A stretch of DNA of 63,131 bases, counting the filler, from Rozella allomycis CSF55 (lineage: Eukaryota), in assembly GCA_000442015.1 (NCBI GenBank). It is 13 parts of 13 records of this genome, joined end to end, with 100 filler letters (N's around TTAATTAATTAA, not from the genome) between each part and the next. Parts side by side here need not be neighbours in the genome. Positions count along the whole stretch, not along the records: positions 44,514 to 52,163 come from KE560996.1; 12 more parts are not named here. One strand, given 5' to 3'. The translations under genes and the position numbers were made by a program. Under the pieces are notes generated by a model. It worked only from the letters and a program-made list of their open reading frames with translations, was not told the DNA's origin and made no database searches. Of the stretch, positions 13,254-59,860 are shown in pieces. Positions within the stretch are counted from its first letter, which is position 1; each line of letters begins with the position of its first letter.

Positions 13254-14689
13254 TTAACTGTTCACTGAAACTTAGACTAAATGAATGACTCGTACTGTAA
13301 CTGTTGACATCAATTTTATCTGGAAGCTCTGTAATGTTAACCTCGAATCTTTCTTGAACTTGATTGAGAATTTGTGAATCTTCAGCACTAGAAACGAAAG
13401 TGACTGCAAGACCTTTGGTACCGAAACGACCAGCTCTACCAACCTTACATATATTCATCTGAATCTGCTTACTCTGTGAAGATAAGAATCAGCGCTATCT
13501 GGCATATCGTAGTTAATAACAATGTTAACTCTTTCAATATCGATTCCTCTGCCGAAAATGTCAGTACAGACCATAATTCTCTTCTTAAAGTCTTTGAATG
13601 TTTGATAACGCGAAATACTTTGGTTTTGTTTTGACTATTTGGTTACCTAAGATTTTGTCAATAAAAATGAAAAACTTACCGTTCTTCTTGTGGCAAACTG
13701 CCGTGAATGCAAATTGAAGGAAAGTTGCATTCAACTAAAAGTTTGTCAAGCTCATTAGCACGTGCGACAGATTTTACAAAGATGACAACTTGATTAAATT
13801 CTAACGCATCAAGCAAATCATTGAGCTTTTTGTTCTTTTCATTTTCTTGCAGTTTGACGTAATGCTGTTGAAGACCATGCAGTGTTAATTTAGCTTCATC
13901 ATCAACAAAAATTTCCAATGGATTTTGCATAAACTTTTTGCAAATAACCCGAATTTCTTTGTTTAGAGTCGCTGAAAACATCATGCATTGCTTTTCATGA
14001 GGTGTTTGACGGAAAATATCTTGAACATCACGTCTCATATCTTTTAATATTACATATTTATAATTACCCAAAGATTCAAGCATTTTATCACATTCGTCCA
14101 AGACAAACATTTTGACCTTCTTAAGGTTGAGGGCTTTATCACGAATAAGCGCCAAAATACGACCAGGGGTACCAACTACAATATGTGGACAGTCTGATTT
14201 TAATTGTTCCATGTTTTGTTTGATGCTAACACCTCCATAAAAAACTGCTGTCTTCACGTCAGGCATGTATTTGGTGAACCTAATGTACTCATTCTTGATT
14301 TGGAATGCAAGCTCACGAGTATGGCACATAATCAAAACAGAAACTTGGTCCTTGACAGGTTCCAATTGTTGAAGTGATGCCAAGACAAACACAGCCGTTT
14401 TCCCCATACCGGATTTAGCTTGACATAGCACGTCCATTCCAAGAACGGCTTGTGGGATACATTCTTGTTGGACTTCAGAAGGATGCTCAAAACCGCAGTC
14501 AACAAGCGCTCTCATAAGTTCTGGCTTTAGCAAAAAGTCACGAAAACCGGAAGAGTGGATACCAACGTACGATCCCTTTTTGACTTCTCTATCCGCAGCA
14601 GATGTGTTATCTCTAAGTTTCGCTACTTTTGTTGGAAGAGGAATAGCTTCATCTTCTTCAAAGTCTACTAAGTCGTCGGCAGCGCTCAT
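13254..14689 (-). CDS. SUB2: DECD-box RNA helicase UAP56/Sub2
   Basis: [22 protein letters not shown]; spliced C-terminus YMNS*. Confidence 0.97.
13618..13679 (-). other. 62-nt intron made of two abutting mini-introns (33+29 nt)
   Basis: GTAAGT...TTAG|GTAACC...AAAG; removal restores [14 protein letters not shown]. Confidence 0.75.
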
Positions 14690-19415: not shown

Positions 19416-22400
19416 TTATACAAAATTGTTTAAGAAGCGAGTCAATTTCTTTGCCAAATTTAAATTCTCCTGGATATCATTATGTTTGAGGTAACACGGA
19501 CACAGAAGCGAATCGCAAGTGTAGTTAGCTAGAAGACCAAGTGCAAAGTTCACTGACCAGTTTAAGGTTTGCCAATGCAACCTTTTCTATTTGGTTTATG
19601 AGGTTTGCAATGTAAAACACAGTTTCCTGTTTATTGCGCGTGCACTTTAGACAGACAATTGAAGAAGCGATTGGCTGCCTGCAAATCAGGCATGATCCTT
19701 GCAGGTAAAACTGATCGATAGTTTTGGCAGTTGTTGTGGGCTGAGAAGAGAGGATGAGTCTAGTTTTTATGCGGTCTGTTCTTGGCATTTGCATGTACCA
19801 GTCATTGATCTTTATGCCCATTGTGCAGAATACTCTATCGAGGGATGGGATTATTTGTTTGGTAATGTAATACGTAGAATGAAGTCTTAGTTTCTTGTCA
19901 AGGAACTCTTTTGGAGAAACAATGAAATCAACTAGTCGGTTTCCTTCTTGGCGATAAGCTACGAGGTAAGAGACGCGTTCAGCGTATTCGGGAACTGAGC
20001 GAGAGTCGTTTAGAGCAACTTGTGCAGCCAGATGAGCGGCTGGAGGAAGAGTATTTGATTTGTACCTAAAAATAATTAAAGATGAAACTTACGAACCGAA
20101 TTTGACTTTTTTGAAAAAGATGAAATCGTAAACGTTAATGTGACCGCCTAGAATAGAATTCCATTCCTTGTAGAGATATTCTTTGACTTTGGATAAATCG
20201 TTTGTTCTTGCCAAGATTCTACAAAACTTAGAATGATTTGTGTTACTTTAGAGAGTTTTCTTGTATTTTGGAAACTGCTTGGCAAGAATCTCTGCGAATG
20301 ATTTCGGTGCCTTTAGATTCCAAGATTGGATCTATTTGATCTTTGGATTCATATTTGAAACCACAGTAGCGTTTCTTTGACATTAACACACACGGTTGGT
20401 AAACCAAATTGAATTGAAAGAAAAGGAATTACTTTTTCAAATTTGAGTTTGATTGGCTTTGGATTTAAATTTGTGATTTCATTAGCGATTTCATTCCCAA
20501 TATCAAACGCTTGATCTTTAGTTCTTCCCTTGAGTAGCACAAAAACACTTTGAATGTAAATGTTGACAATTACCTGTCAGTGTCACCGTAAACAACATTT
20601 GCATTCCACTTTGGATGAGAATTAATGTAGGCGATTGTTTTTTCGAGAGTTTGTCTGCCAGAAAGAACAATAGAGTCGGCAATGTCAACACAGGGCATTC
20701 TTCCAGAGAAAGAGGCAGAAGTGTATCCATAAGTGACGTTTGAAATGTATTTTATTCCTAATTGTCTTGCATCCAAAGTTCTTTTCAGTTCCAAATCTAA
20801 TTTAAATGTAAATATTAATACTTTGTGAATCTTCATTGAATTTTTAATCATAATTCTTGTTTCTAGCAATTCCATCAACATTCTACCCAACAAACCTTCT
20901 CTGATGTGTTTCTTTACGTATTTAACGTTATTAGGAGCAACAAAAACATCATTGGATGAAAATTGATTTGAATTGAAAGATTTGTTTGAAGCTCCAAGTT
21001 TATCTTTATCATTGCCCAAACAAGTGGTGTAACAATAATTGTAAGCAATCATTAAAGAAGGATACAATGACTGGAAATCTAAAACAACTACGGGATCAAC
21101 ATAAAACTATTTATAATCAACAAAAGAAATATACTTTGGAATTTGGTTCCATTACGAGTGGCAACCCTTGAGCAGCATTCATTGAATTTATTTGATTTGC
21201 GTTGGGAGAAAATGGAATGAAATCTTCTCTTTTAGCCATTCTGAGCATCATTGATTCAACTTTGAATTGAGATCCCCTTGAAATTACAGAATAAAAATCA
21301 ACTCCAAAAACCCTTGCAAATTCACTTGTTCTGAAAATAAAATCAATTTTAGCTAAAAGTTCCAAATTACAAATAGCTTTATTTAAAATATGATCTATCA
21401 AAACATATTTTCTATTTTTAAATAGATCCAACAATTTTATTTGATCAAATTCTGGAACTCTTTATTGTTTAAAGAAATCAATTTACTTTTGATGTAGAAT
21501 GTGATAAACTGTTGTATCAAAATTATAATTTCTCAAATTTTGATCTTGTTTAATTAATCTCCAAATATTTAACATTATTCTTCCAGGTATAAAAATTCCA
21601 CTAGCGACGTTATAATTCCATTTATCATTTTTAAAATTCAACGCTCTATCTTTAATGTTATTTGTATTGTATTCAATGATTTCTCTATTGACGTCTCTAT
21701 TGTTGTCTCTAGCTTTAGCATTGTTAACGCTGTCTCTATTGTTAGTGTGGTCTCTCGCATTATCGCTAACCCTTGTTTGATCTCTTTCATCTGTAGATTT
21801 CATTCTTGATAATTCTTTAATAATGTTTATTTCATACTTTTTCAAAGATCTCTCAATTAAATAACCAAAAGATGATTGATGGATCTCAAAGCCACAACAA
21901 AAATCTGGATCTATTTCTTTAAATTTATTTATAAAAGATCTAATCATTTCTATTTCACTTGAAAAATTTATTGTTTTAAAATTTGTACATTTTCTTTCAT
22001 CAATTGAAAAAATTAAATAATCTTCAAACCCTTGTTTATGATAATAGATTGAAATCATTTTTATTTCATCAAATTCTGGATCACTCTTTAAACTCCCCCT
22101 GCTAATTGAATACAATTCCATTGATAATATCGTCATGTTTTGAAACACTTCTATTCTCTCCTTGTTATTAATCTGCGTAAATTTAAAATTAAATGTATTT
22201 CTGGGTGTTGGTGATTCCACTTGTGATTTCACCCTCTCTTGAACCCTAAACTCTTCAATCTTTGGTGGCTTGGTAATGAATTCAAACCATTTCTTCTTTT
22301 TTAATCTTTTCTGCGTTATTAAATTTATTGTTTGGCTTTTCTCAACTTCAACATTCACAGATTTATAGATTGGCTTAAACTCATCCAAGTCATTGATTGA

Positions 22401-24296
22401 CTTTAGTGTAAACCTTTGTCCATGTAGTAATACTTCACTCTGATTTATATCATCTGGATTACTGAAAATTGGATTTAAATTTTCTACAAACGTTAAATTA
22501 AAGTCATTCAAACTTTCAATCAACTCATTTACACTTGGTGGCTTAGATTTAAAAGTATAAAATTTCATTTCATTTCCAATCGATAAATTGGGTAAATAAA
22601 ACTCATTAGATTCTAAGTCATTATTTTTCATTGATTCTATTTCATCAAAAGTTACTTCTTCAACGAAATGATCTTCATCTACTCCAACTACTTCTTCTAC
22701 CTCTTCTATCTCTTCATCTACTTCTACGTCTTCAAATTGACCATTTGGTATTTCATCAGCAGATTCATCAAGTAAAGAAATTTCCCAATCAATATTTTTA
22801 AACTTATCGATAGAAGATTCAATAAATGAATTTTGTGAATCTGAAATGTGAGAATCCGAAAGGTGAGGATTTGAAAGGTGAGAATCTGAACCATCCAAAC
22901 CATCAAATTGATTCACCTTGTATTTATTAAAAGAATCTTTATTATCATTCAAAGAACTAAAAATATCATTCTCAATGTTAAAGTAATTTATTTCTTCTCC
23001 GTTATTCATCAATTCATCTTCTTCAATTTCAACGTCTTCGCGAAAGTCAACATCAATCTTTTCTTCTCCTTCAACTTCTTCTCCTTCAACATCATCTCCT
23101 TGTAGTTGCCCATCAAATAAATTGTCCAAAAATTCATCCAAATCTTCATTTCGATTTCCAAAATTATTCAATTGAGTTTGTTGAGTTGAAAATATTCTCA
23201 GCGATGAATTTGAAAAGATCAAATTTGGCTTCAAGTTTAAAATCAAAGGTTCTAGTCCTCTTATCAGAAAAATCTTTGGATAACTCAATTCAATAGACTC
23301 AAAAGCAAACGGAATATCTTTATATTCTTCTTTTTCATCAAAAATCAAATTTTCATTCAAATCTTCAATAATTTCACTTTCATTATTCCCCAATTTCCAT
23401 TCAACTTGAGTTAAATTCTTTTCTTCTCTGCGCTCCTTTTCATCCCTCCAAATACTCTTCAATGAGGGAACACAACACTCTTCTTTACTAAAATAGCCCA
23501 TTCCATTTCTTCTATTCAGTTTTTTTCTTTCTTCAATCACATTCATTCTATTCATTATACAAAAACCAAAAGTATCAATCTCTATTTCACAAACACTCTC
23601 CTTCTTCAATCTTTCATCCTTGTAATCCTCATAATACATCAAATCTTCTGAAATTGGCTCACTGCTTATCTCTGAAATAACCCTCTGTCTGGAACCGGTT
23701 TCACTTTTAAAAGCCTTTATTTCATCTATTCAATAAAAATAATCAATTCTTACCGTTAGAGAGTCTATGTCTATAATTCGAAACAGTTATCTCTCCCATC
23801 CCATAAATCCCATAGTCCATCATAAACTGCAACGTAAATGGTATATGGACTTCATACACATCAAATTTAAAATCCATAATCTTTCCATCTTGAAGCATCC
23901 TGGCCGCCTTTTCAATTTGATTAGGAACACACAACATCACTTTAACAAATAATCCCAACTCTTTCTCATATCCATACATGTTTCTTCCCTTAACAAGCAC
24001 CAGTTTATACACTGCAATCTTTTCTAATTCCAATTTTTGATGGATCATCTCCAACATTTCTTCAACTCTATCAAGCTCTATCCCAACATGTATTTCTTTT
24101 TACCAAATGGAAAATTTATATAAAAATACGGATAAACATGATGCACGTAACAGGTAATAGATCTCCTTGAATCTGTTTGGCCAACCATCCTAATCACAGG
24201 AACCATAGGCTCTGGTTTCACTAACATCGGAATATCATCAACCTGCGGTATCCCCCTTCTCATAATAGGCTGTATATCCAAAACTGTAAACTTCAT
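19416..24296 (-). CDS. REV3: DNA polymerase zeta catalytic subunit
   Basis: SRGSQFKVES, DFQSLYPS, DARQLGIK, SGRMPC, YGDTDS, KKRY, C-terminal Cys motifs; long acidic insert. Confidence 0.95.
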
Positions 24297-41265: not shown

Positions 41266-42375
41266 TTACAAGAAATACTCCGGCGCTGGCTTCTTTGCAG
41301 GTATTCCTCTTGCATCCTACTTAATACAGCATTCTTTAACATACCTGCGGTGCAGCATCAAATATTTTATAATGTTTATTCATATGCTCATCCAGCTCGA
41401 GTATGGCGGCAACATTGCCACATCTCTTGAAAAAGTCAACAAGTATTTACCTATAGCAATAATTGGGCGCAGACCAAACCGTTACGAGGGTATCATTGAA
41501 CATTAACTTGTAGCCTTCCATTACAAGTTGATGGGCGCGTGCAATCAATTCAAGGTTGTTGTTTTGCATGAACTAGCATAACACGCACAATAAGATTCTT
41601 ACAGTAGCTGTAACGTCTCCACCAAAAAGCCATCCAGCTCCCCTCGGCGATACTCCCCAACCTTCAATGTCGTCTGGATCAGACCACAACAAGTCACTTT
41701 GACTATAAATTGATTTACTAATTACCACATTGCTCCGTCGTGGGGAACTTCTTGTTTTCTGTCTATTGTCCTTATCTTTGTCAAGACTTATTTCTTTTTA
41801 TACTTGATCCAATGTGTTAATTGCAGCAGAAAGTCCACCATGGACGCAGAATACTTTATCTTCGATTAATGCCGAGAGACTCAGGTAGTCAAAAACTTCA
41901 CAACAATATCTCCATACATTAACACTTCCATACTTTCGAAGGCATTCATCATAGAATCCATATACTTGAGTAATTTGTCGGCTTTCATGATTTCCTCTGA
42001 TAAGAGTAATGCGGTCTGGATAGCGCACTTTTAATGCTAACAATAACAAAAATGTCTCTACAGAATAATACCCACGATCCACAAAATCGCCTATAAGAAA
42101 CACAAACACTCAAGTACCCATAAACAGATAGTTGGTTTCAGGACATTTCCCTCCTACTTTAAATAATTCTTTCAAATCAAAAAATTGCCCATGAATGTCT
42201 CCACAAATCAATATTTAATAAAATAGTCTGTTACCGTAACTGGGGCGCTAATCCTCTGTACGTTGCTTTCCTCAATAAGTATTTCTCGTGCTTTATAGCA
42301 TAAGTCTTTCACTTCACTTTCTTTTATCAACTCACAATTTCTCAGCTTTTCTATTTGCTGATCCAAGTCACTCAT
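41266..42375 (-). CDS. PPH3: Ser/Thr protein phosphatase 4 catalytic subunit
   Basis: [38 protein letters not shown]-terminal EYFL. Confidence 0.93.
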
Positions 42376-44513: not shown

Positions 44514-45655
44514 TTATTCATAAAGACGCATAGTTTTATTGTTGGCGCATGTGTTACTCCTACCGACCCAATTCTGGCACATTCGGTTATCAAAGGAAAA
44601 TTCGCCAACAAGTACATTCCGCATCACTTGCGCAATATAATATCAGCGGAAAGGTAGTTGATCTTTGTGTTATAAATAGCGGTGCTAATGATGGTCTCGG
44701 TTTTCCGCTTTTAATGCTTCCAATATATTTCTTGCAGACGGACAATATTGGGGAAGCATTAATGCAATGGTTAACAATTACATGGCTATATGAGATTGGA
44801 TTATCTATTGTTATTGGATTTATATTAGGCTATTCCGCCAAACATATTTTGCAGAAGAGTGAAAAGAATGGCTTGATTGATAAAGGGTCATTTCTAGCCT
44901 TTTCCATCGGACTAGCAGTAATCATTCAACTTTACATACATATAGTTAATGGTCACTGGCCTAGTGTCGTTGTTAGCGAGTGATGATTTATTAGCTGTGT
45001 TTGTCGCCGGAAACACTTTTACTTGGGACGACTGGTTTACCGAAAAAACAAAAAAGGAAAACTTTCAAGAGATCATTGATATGCTTTTTAATATAGTATT
45101 TTTTGTGATACTTGGATCTCTCTTGCCATGGGCATCATTTGCTAGTTTCGGGTTAGGAAAATTGTTTGGATTGTCTTTCCTGATACTAATTTTCCGCAGA
45201 TTACCCATTGTCCTAATATTGAAAAGATTTATTCCAGTTTTGAGATCATACCGCGAGGCATCGTTCNGCCTATTGTTCTTTTATTGAAAAGATTTATTCC
45301 AGTTTTGAGATCATACCGCGAGGCATCGTTCGCTGGCTGGTTTGGACCGATTGGTGTTGGCGCCATATTCTTTTCGCTGTTGATTGAAGAAAAGTTGAAA
45401 ATCCAAACAAATAGCGCAGATGAGATTGACTTTATTATCAATAATACGTTTACGGTAGTATCTTTTGTTGTCCTTGCGTCAATAATTGTGCATGGGATCA
45501 CGGTGCCGATTACCAATTTCCACTTGAAGAAACGAAAGCAAAAGAAATTAAGATCTAGAACGGCAAAGATCAATTTGGCATTATACGAAGAAGATGAAAC
45601 TGATGTGGGTGATGAATTGCCCAAGTTGACAAATGCGAGCAGTGTTTATGAATAA
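44514..45655 (+). CDS. NHA1: Na+/H+ antiporter, CPA1 Nha1/Sod2 type (5' truncated)
   Basis: TPTDPILA, SAESGANDGLGFP, SDDLLAVF, RRLP, GWFGPIGVGA, SIIVHG. Confidence 0.9.
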
Positions 45656-45761
45656 AATAAATCTAATACTCTATTCATTTTTTGATGTTTTATATTTTGG
45701 CGGTATAATTTCTCTAATTGAAATGTGGCGTTAACCAATTCGGGCAAGTTGAAAATTTCCA

Positions 45762-48700
45762 ATGATGCATCTTACACCAGGATTATCAAAATCGCGCAGT
45801 CGTTTGGACTTGTTTTCTTCGCAGGACATTCCGCATGTGCAAAAGAATCAAGTGTCGAGACGCAACGGTAACAAGACTTGACAATTGAAATTAGGTAATA
45901 TTCAGAGTAATTTAAGAATATAGGTAATACTTTGCTGTTAATAAACATAGGTAAGAGTGATATTTTTATCCGGTATAGGTACAATTTCATACTAAATCAT
46001 TATAGGTGCCGTGTTGGGTCGTAATACGATTCTGAAGACTGATCATTTCCACAAGGGAATAAATTTGGATTTGAGTGTACTGTTGCAGGGAGCGCCTAAT
46101 TTCCGGCAGACAGAGTTGAATATCTATGGGGTAGCGCAGCCGACGACTGTAGGGCTCGCATCTATAATGTCGTTGCTTGAATGCCGCCCTGAAGACCATA
46201 TGCATAGTAATCCCAGTGAAAACGGGCATAATTCACTTAATAGCGGGAGAGAACATGTTCATAGTGCGAGTGAAAATGCGAATGTGTCGAATGCAAATAA
46301 AAACTTTGNAGATGTGGGTGATGAATTGCCCAAGTTGACCAATGCGAGTAGTGTTTATGAATAAAGTATATCTAATACTCTTCATTCATCTTGCCTTTGT
46401 TTTGTATTTTGGCGGTATAATTCTCAAATTGAAATGTGGCGTTAACCAATTCGGGCAAGTTGAAAATTTCCAATGATGCATCTTACACCAGGATTATCAA
46501 AATCGCGCAGTCGTTTGGACTTGTTTTCTTCGCAGGACATTCCGCATGTGCAAAAGAATCAAGTGTCGAGACGCAACGGTAACAAGACTTGACAATTGAA
46601 ATTAGGTAATATTCAGAGTAATTTAAGTATATAGGTAATACTTTGCTGTAAATAACATAGGTAAGAGTGATATGTTTATTCCATATAGGTAAAATTTTAA
46701 TACTAAATCATTATAGGTGCCGTGTTGGGTCGTAATACGATTCTGAAGANAATATAGGTAATACTTTGCTGTTAATAAACATAGGTAAGAGTGATATTTT
46801 TATCCGGTATAGGTACAATTTCATACTAAATCATTATAGGTGCCGTGTTGGGTCGTAATACGATTCTGAAGACTGATCATTTCCACAAGGGAATAAATTT
46901 GGATTTGAGTGTACTGTTGCAGGGCGCGCCTAATTTCCGGCAGACAGAGTTGAATATCTATGGGGTAGCGCAGCCGACGACTGTAGGGCTCGCATCTATA
47001 ATGTCGTTGCTTGAATGCCGCCCTGAAGACCATATGCATAGTAGCAATCCCAGTGAAAACGGGCATAATCCGCTTAATACTGGGAGAGAGCATGCTCATA
47101 GTGCGAGTGAAAATGCGAATGTGTCGAATGCAAATAAAAGCTTTGGTGTTTTTTCGCAGTCGTGTAGTGATGTGTTTGAATGCAAGAGATGTACGTGGTT
47201 TAATACGCGGGAGGAGCCTGTTGTGTATATTAATGAGAAGCCGTTTGTGTTGCGCGAGTATGATAGCCCGTTTAGGAATATCAAAACGTATAATGGGATT
47301 AGTGCGAGTAGATTGGAGCAGCTGGAGTTGCGTATGAAGGAGGATGTGTTGAAGGAAGCTGAGAGAAACCATGGATTGGTGTTGGTGCATGATGAGATTA
47401 GTAAGAGAGTATTAGTTTTGAGATAGGTGATGGGAAGATTGTGCCTTATTGGGTGTCTGCTGAGCAGGTGAGAACGAGTCGGGAGGTGTTTGAGTGGTTT
47501 ATCCAGCGGGGGTATAGGGTGAGTTATTTTAGGATACCGATCTCCGCGTCGCAGGCACCGAGTGATGAGTATGTGGATGAGTTTGTGAATCGGCTGATGC
47601 GATTGGAGGTGGAGGAGAGTGTTGTGTTTAATTGTGGGATGGGGGTTGGAAGGACGACGTTTAATATGGCGATAGCGTTGCTTGTGAGGCGTATGAAAAA
47701 GGAGGGATTGAAGCATAAAAAGGAGAGTAATTGGAGTGATTGAATGGGATAGATCAAGATGAGGTGAATACGAGGAATATATTGAGGCTTGTGTATATAT
47801 TGGAGCGAGGGTTGAATAGTAAGATGTCGCCTAATTCAGCGATTGAATGGGCGTTGGCGCGTGGGAATTTGATTGACAAGTTGAAGAATGCGATTATGGG
47901 GAATTATCAAGTAAGAGATGGAGGGGAGAATGAAAGGTTATATTGGAGCTGACGAGTGTGTTGGAGAATGGACAATATTTCAAGAGGATTGTTGATGAGA
48001 CGATTAATCAATGTAAGGGTGTTGAAAGAGATTGAAAGGTGATGCTGTGATTAATTTGAGGGAGGATATATTGATGCATAGAATTAGACANAGGGAGAAT
48101 GAGAGGTTATATTGGAACTGACGAGTGTGTTGGAGAATGGACAACATTTCAAGAGGATTGTTGATGAGACGATTAACCAATGTAAGGGTGTTGAAAGAGA
48201 TTGAAAGGCGATGCTGTGATTAATTTGAGGGAGGATATATTGATGCATAGAATTAGACACAATGTGACTGAAGATTCGAGTGTGTTGGAGTTGGGGATTG
48301 GATCATTAGAGCGATATTTTACGTTGATAGCATTTGCAGCGTATTTGGGGGAAAGAGAGTTTAAGAATGGGTTTAGTCGATGGATTAATGAGAGGGCCGA
48401 GATTTGGAAGATGTTGGAGAATTTGAGAAAGAAGGGAGGGTTGTTGAGGTAGATTGATTTGTAGAGTTTAATAGACATTTCAGACCGATAGAAGAGTTGG
48501 GAATATTGAAGGAAAAGACAGAGCAAAACAAGGCTAGTCAAATATCATTGATTGAAGAAGAAACAATTTCAGCTATTAATGTAAGATTTGAATGATTTGA
48601 TTTATGAAGAATAGAAGTGGATCTGTGTTGACTTCGCATACAATATTGAAGATTGATCATTGGGGAATAGATAAGAGTCAAGTGATGATTGTTGGAGCGC

Positions 48701-51700
48701 CAAATTTTAGAAGAGTTGAAGAATTCCCAGTGTATGGAGTAGCGCAGCCAACTGAGAATGGAATCATCAATGTATTAGAGTACATCAAGCGAGAGTTGGA
48801 GTGTGAAGGGGTTGAAGGGGAGGGGGTAGAGGGTGAAGAAGGGGAGGGGGTTAGTGAAGAGGGGGTAGCAATGGGAATAGAAGGAATGATGATTGATGAG
48901 AGAATTCAAACTACTACTACTACTTTCAAACCTCATACTACATTTAAACCCCCTACTAATAAAATAGTTTGGATTAATTTGAGAGAAGAACCAATAATAT
49001 ATATCAAGGGAGAACCATTTGTGTTGAGAGATGAAAAGTATAGTTTGAGAAACATTCAAACATATTCAGGGATTACAAGTGAACGCTTNATTGGAGAGTG
49101 AAGGGGTTGAAGGTGAAGAAGGGGAGGGGGTTGAAATGGGTGAAGAAGAGAGGCTAGCAATGAGAGTAGAAGGAATGATGGTAGATGAGAGAATTCAAAC
49201 TACTACAACTACTTTTAACCCTCATACTACTATTAAACCCCCTACATTTAAACCCCCTAATACTAATAAAATAGTTTGGATTAATTTGAGAGAAGAACCG
49301 ATTATTTATATAAAGGGAGAACCATTTGTGTTGAGAGATGAGAAATATAGTTTGAGAAACATTCAAACATATTCAGGGATTACAAGTGAACGGTTAGAAT
49401 TGTTAGAGATGAGATTGAAGGATGATGTGATAGCTGAGAGTAAATATTATTCTGGTAGAATATTGTTGCATGAAGAAAATGAAAATGAAATTGTAGGGAA
49501 TTGGATTAAATTAGAGAATGGAAATGTAAAAACTGTGAATGAAACATTTAAATCTGAAATTTATGAATTTTCTAAAAAGAGTTTTATTGAATGTGAATTT
49601 TATAGAATTCCATTGACAGCTGAAGAATCACCAGAGCCAAATGATTTAGATTCTATTCTTCAATTGATTGCCAAAATGGATATCCTCAACACCAGAATCA
49701 TCATGTAAACTTTAGTTTTTGTAAAGGTAGGAATTGTCAAGTTGGGCATGGGAGATCTACAATGGGAATGATTGTAGCCATTCTAGTAATCAACTGGATA
49801 AGAAAAGGTATTGAAGGGGGAGTAGAAGTGGGGAGGGTAGAAGTAGAAGGGAATACTACCACAAGTGATACAAGAGATACTACATCTCCCACTACTTCTC
49901 CTACTACTTCTCCCCTTATATCCCCCCTTATAACATCATCACCTGCTATTGTTTATTCATTGTTGAGAGTTATACGAAATGGATTGGAATGCAAAAAGAT
50001 TGTAGATGAAACAATAAACAAATGTTCAATGACTGTCAATCTAAAAACTAAAATTGAAGAATACAAAATAAAAGCAGAAAAAGCAATGGATGAAAATGAA
50101 GCAAGAAGATTAATCATCAGGGGTGTTCAATATTTAAAAAGATATTTCCTTTTAATTGTATTTCAATCTTATTTGGAACAAACTAATGTTAATGCTTTAA
50201 ATGAAATGGAATCATTCAATTGTTGGATTAAAAGACATTTGGAAATTATTAAAATGATGGATGAAATGGAAGAAGCGTCTTCTATTGGCAACATTCAGAT
50301 TCTATCAATGGTTGACTCTGTTCCCCCTGGCGCTGGCATTGCACTAACAACTGAAGTTTTAGAAGTAGTCAAAAACAGAAAAGGTAAGAGATATGTAGTA
50401 GTAGTTATTAGGTAAAAGATATGAAATAGTAGTTATTAGGTAATAGAGTTGAAATAAGCATATAATAGGTAATCAATTACTTTATATTCTATTTCTCTAG
50501 GTAACCACTTANGAAGTTTTATTGAATGTGAGTTTTATAGAATTCCATTGACAGCTGAAGAGTCACCAGAGCCAAATGATTTGGATTCTATTCTTCAATT
50601 GATTGCCAAAATGGATATTCTCAACACCAGAATCATCATGTAAATAAAAGTTATTGTAAAGGTAGGAATTGTCAAGTTGGGCATGGGAGATCTACCATGG
50701 GAANCCTCAACACCAGAATCATCATGTAAACTTTAGTTTTTGTAAAGGTAGGAATTGTCAAGTTGGGCATGGGAGATCTACAATGGGAATGATTGTAGCC
50801 ATTTTAGTAATCAACTGGATAAGAAAAGGTATCGAGGGGGTTGAAGGGGTTGAAATGGATAGGGTTGAAATGGGGAGGGGTGGAGTAGAAGGGGGTAGAG
50901 AGAGAGTAGAAGTAGAAGTAGAAGGGAATACTACCACAAGTAATACACGTGATGCTACTACAAGAGATACTTCACATGTCAATGCTTCATCTCCCACCAC
51001 ATCCCCCACTTCTACTACTTCTCCCACTACTACTACTTCTCCCCTTGTAACATCATCACCTGCTATTGTTTATTCATTGTTGAGAGTTATACGAAATGGA
51101 TTGGAATGCAAAAAGATTGTAGATGAAACAATAAACAAATGTTCAATGACTGTCAATCTAAAAACTAAAATTGAAGAATACAAAATAAAAGCAGAAAAAG
51201 CAATGGATGAAAATGAAGCAAGAAGATTAATCATCAGGGGTGTTCAATATTTAAAAAGATATTTCCTTTTAATTGTATTTCAATCTTATTTGGAACAAAC
51301 TAATGTTAATGCTTTAAATGAAATGGAATCATTCAATTGTTGGATTAAAAGACATTTGGAAATTATTAAAATGATGGATGAAATGGAAGAAGCGTCTTCT
51401 ATTGGCAACATTCAGATTCTATCAATGGTTGACTCTGTTCCCCCTGGCGCTGGCATTGCACTAACAACTGAAGTTTTAGAAGTAGTCAAAAACAGAAAAG
51501 GTAAGAGATATGTAGTAGTAGTTATTAGGTAAAAGATATGAAATAGTAGTTATTAGGTAACCATGAATAGTTTAAGGCATAATAGGTAATCAATTACTTT
51601 ATATTCTATTTCTCTAGGTAACCACTTCACTTTCTTACTATATCAAAGGTAGTGTGTTGGCTTCGTTTACTATTTTAAAGTATGATCACTTTCCAGGTAA

Positions 51701-52163
51701 TTTACTCTCCTCTAACTCTTATAGGATGTCAGAAACTAACATTGAAAGATAGAATTGATGGAGCACCAAATTTTAGAAGAGTTACGCTTAGTTTAAATAG
51801 TTTACGCTTGGATGATATTTCTCATTCTACTTCAATTGAATCTCTTCATAGATCAAATTCATTCAAATTAGACTCAAAATGTTCTTATGTCTATGGCGTT
51901 GGTATGCCCACTCTAGATGGCATCAAGAAAACTTTATTGTTATGCCATTGTGGTCCAAATAATAATAGATCAATCAAATGGTATCTTTTCTCTTGTTTAA
52001 TTTCAAAGGACTTGCTTAAGAGAAGAACCTGTAATTTTCGTAAATGGAAGACCTTTTGTTTTAAGAACTTTTCAAGATCCAGTCTCCAATCTAGAAACAA
52101 CTGGTAAACATTCAGAAATATATTTAAATAGGAATTGTTTGTGAAAGAGTAGAATTGATGGAA
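45762..52163 (+). CDS. Paladin-like multi-repeat PTP-fold phosphatase; overlapping allelic fragments, 3' truncated
   Basis: Three repeats GxVL..TILKxDH/GAPNFR/YGVAQPT/REEP; CX5R loops FNCGMGVGRTT and NCQVGHGRST. Confidence 0.85.
45868..46005 (+). other. 138-nt intron = five abutting GT-AG mini-introns (27,29,27,28,27 nt)
   Basis: AG|GT junctions at 45894, 45923, 45950, 45978; removal gives RRNG|AVLGRNTILKTDHF. Confidence 0.85.
46579..46716 (+). other. Second (allelic) copy of the five-unit mini-intron array (27,29,26,28,28 nt)
   Basis: Internal substitutions/indels relative to 45868-46005 but all AG|GT junctions intact. Confidence 0.8.
50384..50511 (+). other. Allelic copy of the third-repeat mini-intron array (28,28,29,32 nt, fifth unit truncated at n)
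   Basis: Unit 3 differs strongly in sequence from 51557-51585 but keeps 29 nt and GT...AG. Confidence 0.8.
51501..51648 (+). other. 148-nt intron = five abutting GT-AG mini-introns (28,28,29,32,31 nt)
   Basis: AG|GT junctions at 51528, 51556, 51585, 51617; removal gives KNRKG|SVLASFTILKYDHF. Confidence 0.85.
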
Positions 52164-52263
52164 NNNNNNNNNNNNNNNNNNNNNNNNNNNNNNNNNNNNN
52201 NNNNNNNTTAATTAATTAANNNNNNNNNNNNNNNNNNNNNNNNNNNNNNNNNNNNNNNNNNNN

Positions 52264-55200
52264 AGTCGACATAAAGCGACGTTGATTGTGTGCCCGCAAG
52301 TTATATTGTCGCAGTGGGCGGATGAGATTGAATCAAAGGTGAAAGGGTTGAAGTTTATTGTGGCGAGTTGTGTGAGTGGATTGAATTTGGGGAGTGTTGA
52401 TGTTGTGTTGACGACGTATGAGGTGTTGAGGAAAGGGATTCATTATACGTATGGGCCGAGAAGGTTGCGTGGAGGGAGAGTTGTGAATAATTTGAAAAAG
52501 AATGTGTTGATTCAAACAGGTAAAGATGATTGAGGTGAATAAAAAGGTAAGAGAGAGTAAATTGATTGAAACAGAATGGTGGAGGGTTGTGTTTGATGAG
52601 TCACAAATGATAGGAAATCCCAATGCAGTGGCATCAGGTATTGAATGTGAGATTGAATTTAGTAGAATTTGCATCACATTTGAAGATGAAGAATAGATGG
52701 TTGGTGACTGGAACTCCACTAGGCAAAAAGTTGAATGAATTGTGTGGATTTATGAAATTTCTAGAATTTGAGCCACTGAATGAACTTTCACATTTTAGAA
52801 ATTTACTAAACTATTTAGAAAACTCTAAAAATTTAATTTTGTGGAAGAAATTTGAAGAAACGATAAATTTGATATCATCTAGATTGACAAAGAAGATTGT
52901 GAGTGAAGAAGTGGAGTTGCCTGGCCAGAATATGATTGTAGAGAGATTGACGTTTTCCAAAGTGGAGGATTATTACTATAGGGGGATAGTGGAGAGATGT
53001 TTAGAAGAGAATAAAGGCGAAATGGTGAATTGGATGCAGCAATTGAGGCAGGCGTGGTAAATAGAATTTATTTTGAATTAAAAGTGTTCATCCAACGTTG
53101 GGGGAGAGAAACAGTCGAGAGTTTTCAAAGAAGAAGGAAACTTTGAGTTTGAAGAAATGTTTAGAAATTATGATTAAAAATAATGTGAGTGAAAAGGAGA
53201 ATAATGAGAGAAATTTGTGTCAAGAAAAGTTGAAGATTGGGATGGGATTTGAAGTGAAGAATGATATTGAAAATTCATTAAAATTTTATAGAGAAGCGAA
53301 AGAAATTTGTGAAAAGAAGATTCAAGAATTTGATGAGGGGTTAGGAGAAGGGGTTGAGGGGGGGGGTAGAGGGGGTAGAGGTTGAGGGGGTAGAGGGAGA
53401 AGTGAAAGAAGATGAAGTCAATGAAGTCAATGAAGTTAAACTAGATCAAACACTCGATGAAGTAAATGAAGAAGATGCTGGGTGGTTGAAGATGAAGAAT
53501 TGGTTGAATTTACTTTTCCAATGTTACTTTAATATCGCTAGTTTGAAGATTGATGAGAATGAATCGAATGAAATGTTTGATGAAGCAGAAAAGATTAGAA
53601 CCAGGGTATTAAAAATAGCTGAAGATTCAATTGAAAATAAAAAGAGAAATTTAATTAATTTTTATTCAAATGAAAAGATTAAAGAAATTGAATTTAAAAG
53701 TCCAAATTTTGATGAGTTTATTACAAGAGATTATTATAGAACCCTTGAAGTATCTAGAAAAGTTTTAAATGAAATAAAAAAATGCAAAAAAGAAATTTTA
53801 GAAATATTTGAGAAACCCTTGTTTGAAAATTATGAAGAATCTGCAACGTTTCAAGAGAGGGGAAATTTAATTCAAAATTATTATTCAATTCTAATTTCTA
53901 AATTTCAAGAATTATTAAACAGCGAAAATGATGTGATTGACTTTACTTTTATTGAGGGAGTTGAAGAGAGGGAAGGGGGAGAGGGAGAAAGAGGAGAGGT
54001 TGAAAGGGGAGATAGAGAGGGAGATAGAGAGGGAGAAAGTGGAATTAACGTTGAAAGAGAGGTTAGTGTTGGAGTTGACAGAGAAGTAGAAGACCACGTA
54101 GTAATCACTGCTGATGGTCAATTGAAGAGAAAAGATGAACAAGTTCATGAACAAAGAAAAAAGTTTAAACCTAACACGGATTCAAACTCTAGTGGTTCAA
54201 ACACCTTTACAAATAACTTAAAGTGCTTGCCGTTTCATAGATTAATTTTTAATTTTCAACAATTTGTTTTAAAGAAAACTTCAAAAGAAGAAGACGAAGA
54301 AATTTCAGAAATTGATAAAATGAATTCTGAAATTTCTCAAATTGAAATTCATCAAATTAATTCTGAAATTTCTAAAATAAGAAAAGAGTTTGTTAATTAC
54401 ATTAGAGAATACAATTTAATCAACAAAATATTCAATTCTAGAATCATCTATTTCAAACAACTTCAATCTCTATCAGACAAGGTCACTCTGCCTCAAGTTG
54501 ATGACATTGATGACTTTGTCAATCAACTCTTGTTAAACACTCAAAACACTTTTGCTTTAATCAATCAACAAGAAGCCAAAATTAGATATCTTTCAAATCT
54601 TCAACAATTAAATCACAATGATGAAATTTGTGTCATTTGCAGATCTAAATATGAAAATGGTTTATTAACTGAATGTGGAGTAAATTTTATTCTTATTTCT
54701 CATGTAGCATATTGGTTGTACCAAGTGTATGACGGCTTGGATCAAATCTAAAAATAAATGTCCCGTCTGCAACGCTTCAATCAACCAGAAATTCACTCTA
54801 GTCTCAAACAATGAAATCTCTACCAAAAAACCAAAATATCTTCCGCCTCCACAATTCAGCACCAAAATTGATTTTGTTGTTCGTTCCATCCTTCATTTAA
54901 ACAAAACTGATCCCGATGCGAAATATCTCGTATTTTCTGAATGGGATCAAGCTCTCCATCTACTACAGAAAGCTCTATCTTCCCACAACATTAAATCAAT
55001 CAGACTCGAAAGAAAAAACAACGCCGTCCACCAATTCAACGTTGACGATTCAATCAAAGTTTTCATCCTGCACGCCAGAATGCAGAGCGCTGGGTTAACT
55101 CTCACAAGAGCTACTCACGTCTTTCTATTAGAACCATGCTTAAATCCAGCTCTCGAAAAGCAAGCTATTGGTCGAGTTCACAGGTTTGGGCAGAAAAGAG

Positions 55201-57903: not shown

Positions 57904-59860
57904 TCAATGTTGCAGCAAACTTTGGTAGAAGTAGATTCCCCCACAGTTTCTAAAATTATAAGTCAGTTGGAAAACTTAGTAACGCTGGCTGACGTGAAGC
58001 TTCTTAGGCCGATCTTTTCAATGCCTCTGAATATGCTCAAATTGCAGTGGTAAGCTCTTTGAGATATTTGAACGTTCTCAATACCTCGCTTCTGGCAACA
58101 GCCTTGACATCGACCTATATGAATGTATGCGTGGAGCTTAGTGACGATGGACANAGCGGCAAAATGACATTAGAAACTGTAGCATTGGAAAAGAATGGGA
58201 AACTTGTTTGTCAGTTTTGGCTAATGGATGCTAAACTACGAAGCAAATGTATTGTTGAGCAACAGGACTGTCTTTTAAATTTTGATGATCCGCAAAGTAG
58301 AATGAATGTTGATGAAAGTACGGGTACTGAGGAAATTAAATCACTAGGATCTACGACCCCAGATTTTTTGATTGTCTCCGAAGACTATCCACCAAAAGTA
58401 AAATCAACTATTTTTGGAAATCATAGGTAATTACAGAAGAGCCGTTAACCCTGGGCAGATCTTTTGAATTGTTGTTTTCAGAAAAGGAGACAAAGAAACT
58501 TTTAGACGAATGCAGCGTAGTGTTGTAATAGTCTATAGNTGCAGCAAAAATGACATTAGAAACTGTAGCATTGGAAAAGAATGGGCAGATTTAGCTAATG
58601 GATGCTAACATACGAAGCAAATGTATTTTTGAGCAACCGGACTGTCTTTTAAATTTTGATGATCCGCAAAATAGAATGAATGTTGATGAAAGTACGGGTA
58701 CCGAGGAAAATAAATCACCGGGATCTACGACCCCAGTTTTTTTGATTTTCTCCGAAGACTATCCACCAAAAGTAAAATCATTTATTTTTGTAACTCATAG
58801 GTAATTACAGAGCCTGTAACCCTAATTACAGAGCCGTTAACCCTGGGCAGATATTTTGAATTGTTGTTTTCAGAAAAGGTGACAAAGAAACTTTTAGACG
58901 AATGCAGCGTAGTGTTGTAATAGTCTATAGTTCTGTGTAGCCACTGTATTCAGATAAGCGAAATGGTTACCCACAAAGTACTGTTCGTACTTAATGCGCA
59001 GTGCTGCAATAGTGGCTATGGACTATCAGCAAGGTTACGACATTGTCATTCCATTGCTGCTTCCATCTGAAACATTCACGGCATACAATACATAAAAATT
59101 AGAGGAAGGCACAATTGGTGCTTTTGTGATTCAGGTAAAAAACAGAAAAGACGAATTTAAGACAATTGACGATACCTACCATTTAACAGACCATTACTGA
59201 AGAATCGGCTTAGATTTAGGCGACGTTACTTTTTTTGTTAACGTTAACTTTTAGGTAAGTATAAAGTGTTTAAATATGGTAACATTTAGATATCTTTTAT
59301 ATAAANGACGACATTGTCATTCCATTGCTGCTTCCATCTAAAACATTCACGGCATACAATACATAAAAATTAGAGGAGGGCAAAATTTGTGCTTTTGTTA
59401 TTCAGGTAAAAAAACGGAGAAGACGAATTTAAGACAATTGACGCTACCTACCATTTAACAGACCATTACTGTAGAATCAGCTTAGATTTAGGCGACGTTA
59501 CTGTTTTTGTGAACGTTAACTTTTAGATAAGTATAAAGTGTTTAAATATGGTAACATTTAGATATCTTTTATATAAAGCCAACAAGGTTACCAGACAACA
59601 GACAAGAATTTCACCATCTATTTTCCAGTTCAAGGTAATAGGAATACATCTAACATTTTCACACGGATTGATCCTTATTTTGTATTCCATGTGTGATTCA
59701 CATAAACTATTGTTCCGTAAAATCATAAGTCCAAGAAGTCTCATCACACCTGAAGCACCTGTGTGTCTGGTTTCTTCAAGCGTCGATATGTCTGTGTTGG
59801 ATTATTTCAAAGACGATACGTTACCCGTTTATTCTAAAATAGATAATATATATTCATGAA
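57904..59860 (+). pseudogene. Pseudogenised restriction-endonuclease-fold (Crinkler-associated type) gene fragments, duplicated
   Basis: PLTLGRYFELLF..IVLCSHCIQ..RSAAIVAMDYQQGYDIVIP..AFVIQVKN with stops and frameshifts. Confidence 0.55.

Follow-up and report, generated by a model that had tools for sequence, protein, structure and literature searches.

Head-to-tail chains of intron-like units in Rozella allomycis, candidates for unit-by-unit splicing of mini-introns

Introduction

The DNA analysed here, which we call the window, is a stretch of 63,131 nucleotides (nt), filler included, joined end to end from 13 records of the genome of the fungus-related parasite Rozella allomycis CSF55 (GCA_000442015.1), with the contigs separated by N44-TTAATTAATTAA-N44 linkers. 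One scaffold in the window, at 44514-52163 (KE560996.1), carries a gene whose best homologues, among the matches listed, come from chytrids and Mucoromycota; they are phosphatase-like proteins of the paladin type with three repeats, and share at most 48% identity with it. In repeat 3 of this gene the reading frame is interrupted at 51501-51648 by 148 nt of non-coding sequence that is tiled exactly by five abutting units, each with a GTAA start and an AG end. We describe this interruption (array 2), a second five-unit array at the homologous position of repeat 1 (array 1), and two shorter chains in other genes of the window, and we weigh whether such chains are removed unit by unit as autonomous mini-introns.

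Two five-unit arrays in a paladin-like gene

Array 2 splits a glycine codon in phase 1: the upstream exon ends ...AAC AGA AAA G at 51500 and the frame restarts with GT AGT GTG TTG at 51649, giving N-R-K-G|S-V-L. Five homologues of the array-bearing gene were searched against the window, with two alignments shown, and in that of the fungal homologue P0001 residues 807-1046 fall on 50753-51502 and residues 1046-1062 on 51648-51698. Since this alignment continues at residue 1046 on both sides, the 148 nt in between hold no coding sequence. The five units measure 28, 28, 29, 32 and 31 nt in order and abut at four internal AG|GTAA junctions; none of 400,000 random intron-like sequences of 148 nt could be tiled in this way. 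The array is also reproduced by independent contigs from public DNA, including a contig of 4412 nt from run X4 with 0 gaps over the whole stretch and contigs of runs X1 and X2 that cover the array, and it is therefore not an assembly artefact. The second copy of array 2 inside the window (Table 1) is the same as the sequence from 51501 onward apart from unit 3.

Array 1 divides R-R-N-G|A-V-L in the same phase as array 2. The exon that directly follows it aligns with P0001 residues 120, 586 and 1046, which are the starts of the three repeats of that protein, so that arrays 1 and 2 occupy homologous sites in repeats 1 and 3. For array 1 the 5' edge was taken solely from the open frame that begins with the ATG at 45762, the exon 45762-45867 being without homologue support. 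Again, none of 400,000 random intron-like sequences of the corresponding length, 138 nt, showed such a tiling. In repeat 2 the same Gly codon carries no intron, and a 29-nt intron lies four codons upstream (48581-48609). No unit of array 1 resembles any unit of array 2. The initial annotation of this DNA had described five GTAA..AG units of these lengths at 51501-51648, had placed both arrays in the same Gly codon in phase 1, and had called their unit sequences unrelated; the exact tiling, the P0001 alignments and the pairwise scores between arrays bear out each of these points.

Table 1. Features of the intron chains and their surroundings, in coordinates of the window
Feature	Position	Strand	Basis or remark
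Ordinary 26-nt intron before the upstream exon	50726-50751	+	Read from sequence
Upstream exon, paladin-like repeat 2/3 region, ending with the first Gly-codon base	50752..51500	+	P0001 alignment
Array 2, unit 1, 28 nt, GTAAGAG...TTAG	51501..51528	+	Signal score 2.8 vs ordinary-intron mean 2.85
Array 2, unit 2, 28 nt, near-duplicate of unit 1 (25/28 positions)	51529..51556	+	Pair score; Tandem Repeats Finder (TRF) period 28
Array 2, unit 3, 29 nt	51557..51585	+	Very unlike its counterpart in run X2 and in the second window allele (50440-50468, 29 nt as well)
Array 2, unit 4, 32 nt	51586..51617	+	Sequence, pair scores, signal score
Array 2, unit 5, 31 nt	51618..51648	+	Weak likeness to unit 4 and to the next exon's first 32 nt
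Short exon encoding (G)SVLASFTILKYDHFPG	51649..51696	+	P0001 residues 1046-1062 on 51648-51698
Ordinary 28-nt intron after the short exon	51697-51724	+	Sequence
Allelic second copy of array 2: units 1-4 and the beginning of unit 5, where the single N at 50512 interrupts it	50384..50511	+	
Array 1, five units of 27, 29, 27, 28, 27 nt (138 nt)	45868..46005	+	Homologous Gly codon of repeat 1
Allelic copy of array 1 (27, 29, 26, 28, 28 nt)	46579..46716	+	8 substitutions, 2 indels vs 45868-46005
Partial third copy of array 1 (end of unit 2, units 3-5)	46751..46839	+	Identical to copy a, 0 differences in 82 nt
Two-unit chain, 27+28 nt, SNF2/RING helicase gene, next contig	52520..52574	+	SNF2 profile collinearity
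Two-unit chain, 33+29 nt, DEAD-box helicase gene	13618..13679	-	Helicase_C profile, metagenome transcripts

The scaffold itself consists of several pieces with a single N at each joint (45267, 46309, 46750, 48091, 49089, 50512, 50704), and these pieces overlap as near-identical copies. We read them as allelic or haplotype versions that were probably put in tandem by the assembler, which makes comparisons between alleles possible within the window. Gene segments are repeated with small differences along the scaffold, for example from 45762 onward and again from 46473 onward, and at 49580-50511 and 50513-51630. Low-complexity inserts, G-rich of the GVEG/EGG type and T/P-rich, occur at 50830-51045, 48800-48900, 49100-49260 and 53345-53400, inside the paladin-like and SNF2 genes; they vary in length between alleles, and the X1 contigs have other letters for 71 and 82 nt. 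No copy of the array-bearing gene's exon was found among the 120 database matches listed, and among the 405 metagenome stretches matched by the exon that precedes array 2 there was no relative.

Ordinary introns of the window

A set of ordinary introns was inferred by joining adjacent long open frames with the help of homology, restricted to GT..AG ends. It holds 40 distinct introns in the window, all of 24-30 nt (15 of 26 nt, 14 of 28 and 6 of 27), which start with GTAA and mostly end with TAG or AAG. A length histogram of all frame-joining GT..AG pairs peaks at 26-28 nt and is too noisy beyond. PMC6349667 reports R. allomycis S23 introns of about 30 nt with a poor consensus, in agreement with the tiny introns of the window.

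A family-B DNA polymerase exon at 21486-23729 (-) is 100% identical to the R. allomycis protein P0122 (1507 amino acids (aa)), and this protein threads exactly onto the window, with seven ordinary introns exact in its threading. The eighth annotated intron of P0122, of 58 nt, deletes ten residues (VYQPCVLMSK) that are conserved in four of four homologues; we judge it from the sequence to be a mis-annotation, with a true gap of 28 nt at 20405-20432 (-). The end of this 28-nt intron reads TTG in place of AG; it may be a 3' splice site of non-canonical type or reflect an error in a base. Another apparent GT...TTG intron, of 26 nt, lies at about 42209-42234 (-) in a gene for a PP1/PP2A-like phosphatase, between ...PVT and (I)CGDIHGQ. 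With two such cases, TG may genuinely serve as an acceptor in the Rozella genome.

Two further chains and rejected look-alikes

To find chains elsewhere, the window was scanned for AG|GT junctions between intron-sized GT..AG pieces, and the candidates were then checked in coding context. Two further chains, each of two units, were retained (Table 1). One lies in an SNF2/RING helicase gene, where three exons around the chain correspond, one after the other, to positions 52-116, 126-144 and 149-260 of the Pfam profile SNF2-rel_dom; the 468-aa exon of this gene, used as a query for homologues, gave no match. The other lies in a DEAD-box helicase gene, which we take to be UAP56/Sub2-like. Here, positions 2-54 of the Helicase_C profile finish the upstream exon and positions 58-102 begin at residue 4 of the next one. 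A metagenome scan with the helicase exon returned 80 loci (best identity 74%), and the four metagenome transcripts examined read QEER|ISRY or QEER|LTRY uninterrupted across the chain junction.

The interruptions longer than 34 nt identified in the window thus measure 148, 138, 62 and 55 nt, lie in three genes, and are tiled by GTA..AG units of 27-33 nt in four of four cases. A pass over pairs of long open frames in the window, which required GT..AG ends and was not exhaustive, turned up no convincing untiled long intron.

Four two-unit candidates from the scan were rejected. In the one at 4416-4365(-) the second "unit" is open coding sequence that encodes ...YTSLGGLKDTFPNP, and in the one at 17131-17077(-) the second piece likewise continues as open coding sequence. 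The candidates at 58398-58458(+) and 58772-58832(+) are probably an intron followed by coding sequence, as their second piece continues in the same way. These last two are similar copies of a gene fragment, in which a 29-nt intron is directly followed by a GT..AG stretch of 31-33 nt that may be coding.

Intron-like signals and conservation of the unit ends

In the four chains, all 14 units begin with GTA and finish with AG (13 with GTAA, one with GTAC). Signals were scored with 5' and 3' position matrices derived from the ordinary introns, for the 12 units of arrays 1 and 2 and the SNF2 chain. The units score 2.39 on average, compared with 2.85 for the ordinary introns in a leave-one-out treatment (Mann-Whitney p=0.20), and lie far above 206 exonic GT..AG decoys of the same lengths (mean -4.52, p=1.7e-8). 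If units were retained, translation would meet a premature stop in all 31 combinations possible for array 2, in 30 of 31 for array 1 and in three of three for the SNF2 chain; the sole stop-free case is the 27-nt unit 3 of array 1 when it is kept alone.

Haplotypes allow the unit ends to be followed. Contigs of four runs reveal at least three further haplotypes of array 2, with 19 substitution sites and 7 indels in 51501-51648, none of which falls on the GT or AG of a unit. The two complete copies of array 1 in the window are separated by 8 substitutions and 2 indels, which also spare every GT and AG, and the exon that flanks this array has 0 differences in 139 nt between the copies. Unit lengths are roughly constant among alleles (both versions of unit 3 have 29 nt, and the units of array 1 differ by at most 1 nt). 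Units 3-5 of array 2 and all units of array 1 have diverged beyond recognition and have kept GTA..AG ends and intron-like lengths, from which we argue that the internal sites have been maintained, beyond simple inheritance. No stabilising RNA structure was found: both arrays fold no better than shuffled sequences (z = +1.16 and +0.93), so there is no structure to bring the outer sites together, and an Rfam search of 45700-52700 returned no family.

Two features of the haplotypes deserve separate mention. Unit 3 of array 2 occurs in two very different 29-nt versions (51557-51585 and 50440-50468) amid hundreds of identical flanking bases; one version is found in X1 and the other in X2, both runs also contain a third haplotype at lower depth, and X8 has a more diverged one. 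The two-version pattern looks like a short conversion tract between old haplotypes. Positions 51504 and 51484 read T in all covering runs and A in the window, and the T at 51504 (X1, X2, X4) makes the start of unit 1 GTAT, not GTAA, in those reads.

Origin and growth of the arrays

Units 1 and 2 of array 2 had been called near-duplicates, and this holds, with 25 of 28 positions identical. Their interiors align with a score of 15, which none of 780 pairs of ordinary introns reaches (background maximum 9); TRF reports a period of 28 with 2.2 copies and 91% matches, and AGGTAA stands at each boundary of the two units. At least one growth step by whole-unit tandem duplication is clear from the sequences of this pair. 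Weaker signs come from other units. Units 4 and 5 score 5, which 1.3% of the background attains, and the two units of the SNF2 chain score 3 (4.4% of the background). Unit 3 of the other window allele also scores 5 against unit 2, a value reached by 10 of 780 background pairs, and the similarity test of this allele-B unit 3 against units 1 and 2 was not significant. Taken over all chains, three of 10 adjacent unit pairs are similar at p<0.05, compared with none of 12 non-adjacent pairs within an array (binomial 0.0115).

Exon sequence may have contributed as well. The exon start downstream of the arrays is a GT...AAG stretch in both repeats, and unit 5 of array 2 resembles the first 32 nt of the exon that follows it, a further weaker sign (8 of 2000 shuffles and one of the 40 ordinary introns do as well). 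In the SNF2 chain the last 13 nt (52562-52574) match the last 13 nt of the upstream exon (52507-52519) at 12 of 13 positions, with 13 of 500 shuffles scoring as well; this match could be the footprint of a tandem duplication. Adjacent units that are alike, the likeness of unit 5 to its exon and the match of the SNF2 chain end to its upstream exon are what growth by tandem copying at AGGT(A) junctions would be expected to leave behind.

Two results speak against growth by duplication. The units of array 1 have no significant similarity to each other or to their exon, and the unit number is equal in all copies and contigs that span the arrays, with no unit-sized gap in array 2 in X1, X2, X4 or X8. 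A second route is therefore possible, in which new splice sites would have appeared within an old, once-long intron. The initial annotation had proposed growth by whole-unit tandem duplication as a mode of intron gain, and its proposal stands in part: units 1 and 2 speak for it and array 1, together with the constant unit number, against it; any gain would be of further introns at an existing position, with no new positions. The variation in unit number for which it proposed to look was not seen between haplotypes, either in the contigs of X1, X2, X4 and X8 or in the window copies. Dispersed introner-like copies were not found in the window either, the best score of a unit with an ordinary intron being 6, within the background.

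Proposed mechanism and rival explanations

We consider it probable, given the narrow lengths of ordinary introns and the recurrent tiling, intron-like signals and conserved ends of the units, that the 148 nt form a head-to-tail chain of five autonomous spliceosomal mini-introns with zero-length exons, removed unit by unit. The splicing machinery of Rozella appears to be tuned to a GTA(A) donor and an AG some 26-33 nt downstream of it. Every unit of the chain is preceded by AG and followed by GT, so that any excision, in any order, would restore the same AG|GT junction; the remaining units would stay intact after each excision, and all routes would lead to the same mRNA (...NRKG|SVL...). Removal of the chain would then amount to five ordinary reactions whose order is irrelevant. 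We infer that each unit would undergo its own splicing reaction and that a limit on intron length would be the cause. The chain would lengthen as whole units are duplicated in tandem, the probable cause being slippage among the AGGTA repeats at the junctions, and one unit may derive from a copy of the GT..AAG start of the downstream exon. The interiors of the units would drift freely as their ends stay fixed.

Several points weigh against this proposal. The units are longer on average than the ordinary introns (28.8 and 27.1 nt, p=0.004), and three of the 14, of 31, 32 and 33 nt, exceed the longest ordinary intron of 30 nt, with the other 11 inside the range. Each two-unit chain has a probability of 2-3% of having arisen by accident (chance tilings in 1,678 of 100,000 sequences of 62 nt and in 3,023 of 100,000 of 55 nt), and the four look-alike two-unit patterns turned out to be intron plus exon, or probably so. 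The two apparent GT..TG introns mean that the 3' rule is not strict, and untiled long introns with odd ends could have escaped. The window covers 63 kb only, and its set of ordinary introns was built by open-frame logic. The chance that 36 haplotype changes miss all 40 GT/AG bases of 286 nt is about 0.004, and about 0.014 for the 32 internal ones, values that are indicative only, as haplotype changes are not independent events. Finally, the recently duplicated units 1 and 2 would retain their ends by descent alone.

On a rival view, array 2 is a single intron of 148 nt, ordinary though unusually long, spliced in one reaction from the GT at 51501 to the AG at 51648, in which the internal AG|GT junctions would be unused relics of duplication. 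Units 1 and 2 are recent duplicates whose ends can be present by descent, and introns of 120-152 nt are reported for related parasites in PMC6349667. A single long reaction fits poorly with diverged units that retain GTA..AG ends and lengths of 27-33 nt, with the absence of any change at a unit end among 36 haplotype changes, and with arrays in which no folding joins the outer ends; moreover, no untiled interruption longer than 34 nt was found in the window by a non-exhaustive pass for GT..AG ends, the annotated 58-nt intron being an error. We regard a single-step intron as quite unlikely. Mixed use, in which any donor may pair with any downstream acceptor and the array serves as a redundant, fail-safe long intron instead of a strict series of five reactions, strikes us as rather unlikely. 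By sequence, each donor-acceptor pairing would lead to the correct mRNA, at once or by way of a substrate whose splicing can still be completed, and units of 31-33 nt imply that the length window is not razor sharp; the tight range of 24-30 nt among 40 ordinary introns argues that pairs 55-148 nt apart would be poor substrates.

It is very improbable that the arrays are an artefact of a poor, haplotype-duplicated assembly or copies of a dispersed, introner-like mobile element. The scaffold does hold overlapping allelic pieces joined by single Ns, but contigs of X1, X2 and X4 reproduce array 2, one of them free of gaps, and no N lies inside 51501-51648. With the exception of the pair of units 1 and 2, no unit is like another or like any of the 40 other introns in the window, which argues against a dispersed family there.

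Implications

The chains described here may bear on how the spliceosomes of tiny-intron genomes measure length, and on whether these have a maximum besides a minimum. A stronger form of the unit-by-unit proposal is that the Rozella spliceosome has a hard upper limit of about 33 nt, and that longer interruptions can exist only as concatemers of mini-introns with zero-length exons, which would behave like minisatellites, expand by unit duplication at AGGTA junctions and sometimes be seeded by exonic GT..AG copies. We advance this form tentatively, as a possibility we would not yet favour. If it is true, introns would multiply in a distinct and nearly neutral manner, and the chains would be a natural experiment on the measurement of length; if every longer interruption is modular, they would make the measurement of intron length directly accessible to genetics. 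Array 2 in particular would show the multiplication of introns in place, with a recent pair, older diverged units and possibly one unit derived from an exon. The practical consequence is that gene callers mis-model such loci, as seen in the wrong 58-nt intron of the annotated polymerase gene and in the lack of any copy of the array-bearing gene's exon among the 120 matches listed.

Comparison with known systems

Recursive splicing serves introns of tens of kilobases and uses few recursion sites. In Drosophila and human it operates at ratchet points, or zero-nucleotide exons, and shares with the Rozella chains the internal AG|GT, through which an upstream segment can be removed first and a donor regenerated. 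The Rozella interruptions differ in that they are 55-148 nt in total, each segment has the size of a normal intron and nothing lies outside the units; the order of removal should not matter in Rozella, and stepwise removal, which has been demonstrated for recursive splicing, is here a reading of the sequence. For long introns, stepwise removal is described in PMC6110456 and PMC10156609.

Fungal stwintrons, like other complex intervening sequences, consist of two or more U2-type introns at one position that are excised consecutively, and a proposed source of new units is the appearance of new splice sites inside an intron or the duplication of a donor (PMC7138796). As described there, stwintrons are nested: the external intron has its donor, branch point or acceptor split by the internal one, which makes the order of excision obligatory. 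In contrast, the Rozella units abut with complete GTA..AG ends, none is interrupted, and no site would have to await a prior excision; up to five units are present, compared with the two nested ones of that description. As the Rozella interruptions are not long and their units are not nested, they belong to neither the recursive-splicing nor the stwintron class.

In genome setting, Rozella is closer to the tiny-intron genomes of Paramecium (about 25 nt), Nyctotherus, nucleomorphs, myxozoans and dicyemids, which share with it narrow lengths of about 25-30 nt and reduced GTA...AG signals, as described in published abstracts and in PMC13644364. These texts mention no end-to-end chains of introns; in PMC13644364 there are 0 occurrences of "tandem" or "recursive", and in PMC13685798 "tandem" is used only for gene or genomic duplication and never for abutting introns. 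Our search of the literature, which did not extend to the original Rozella genome paper and its supplements, likewise found no tandem, abutting or back-to-back chains of spliceosomal introns in tiny-intron organisms.

Tandem genomic duplication is named as one mechanism of intron gain in the introduction of PMC13685798. Where a segment with AGGT at its ends is duplicated in tandem, the GT..AG copy can be spliced out and the mRNA stays unchanged, and the likeness of units 1 and 2 and that of unit 5 to its exon fit such an event. In the classical tandem-duplication model the new intron arises inside an exon, whereas in Rozella the copy would be added beside an existing intron, giving rise to an array at an old position. 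We class the Rozella chains as a probable case of splicing that proceeds stepwise or consecutively at sites that abut, new both in its setting and in its form.

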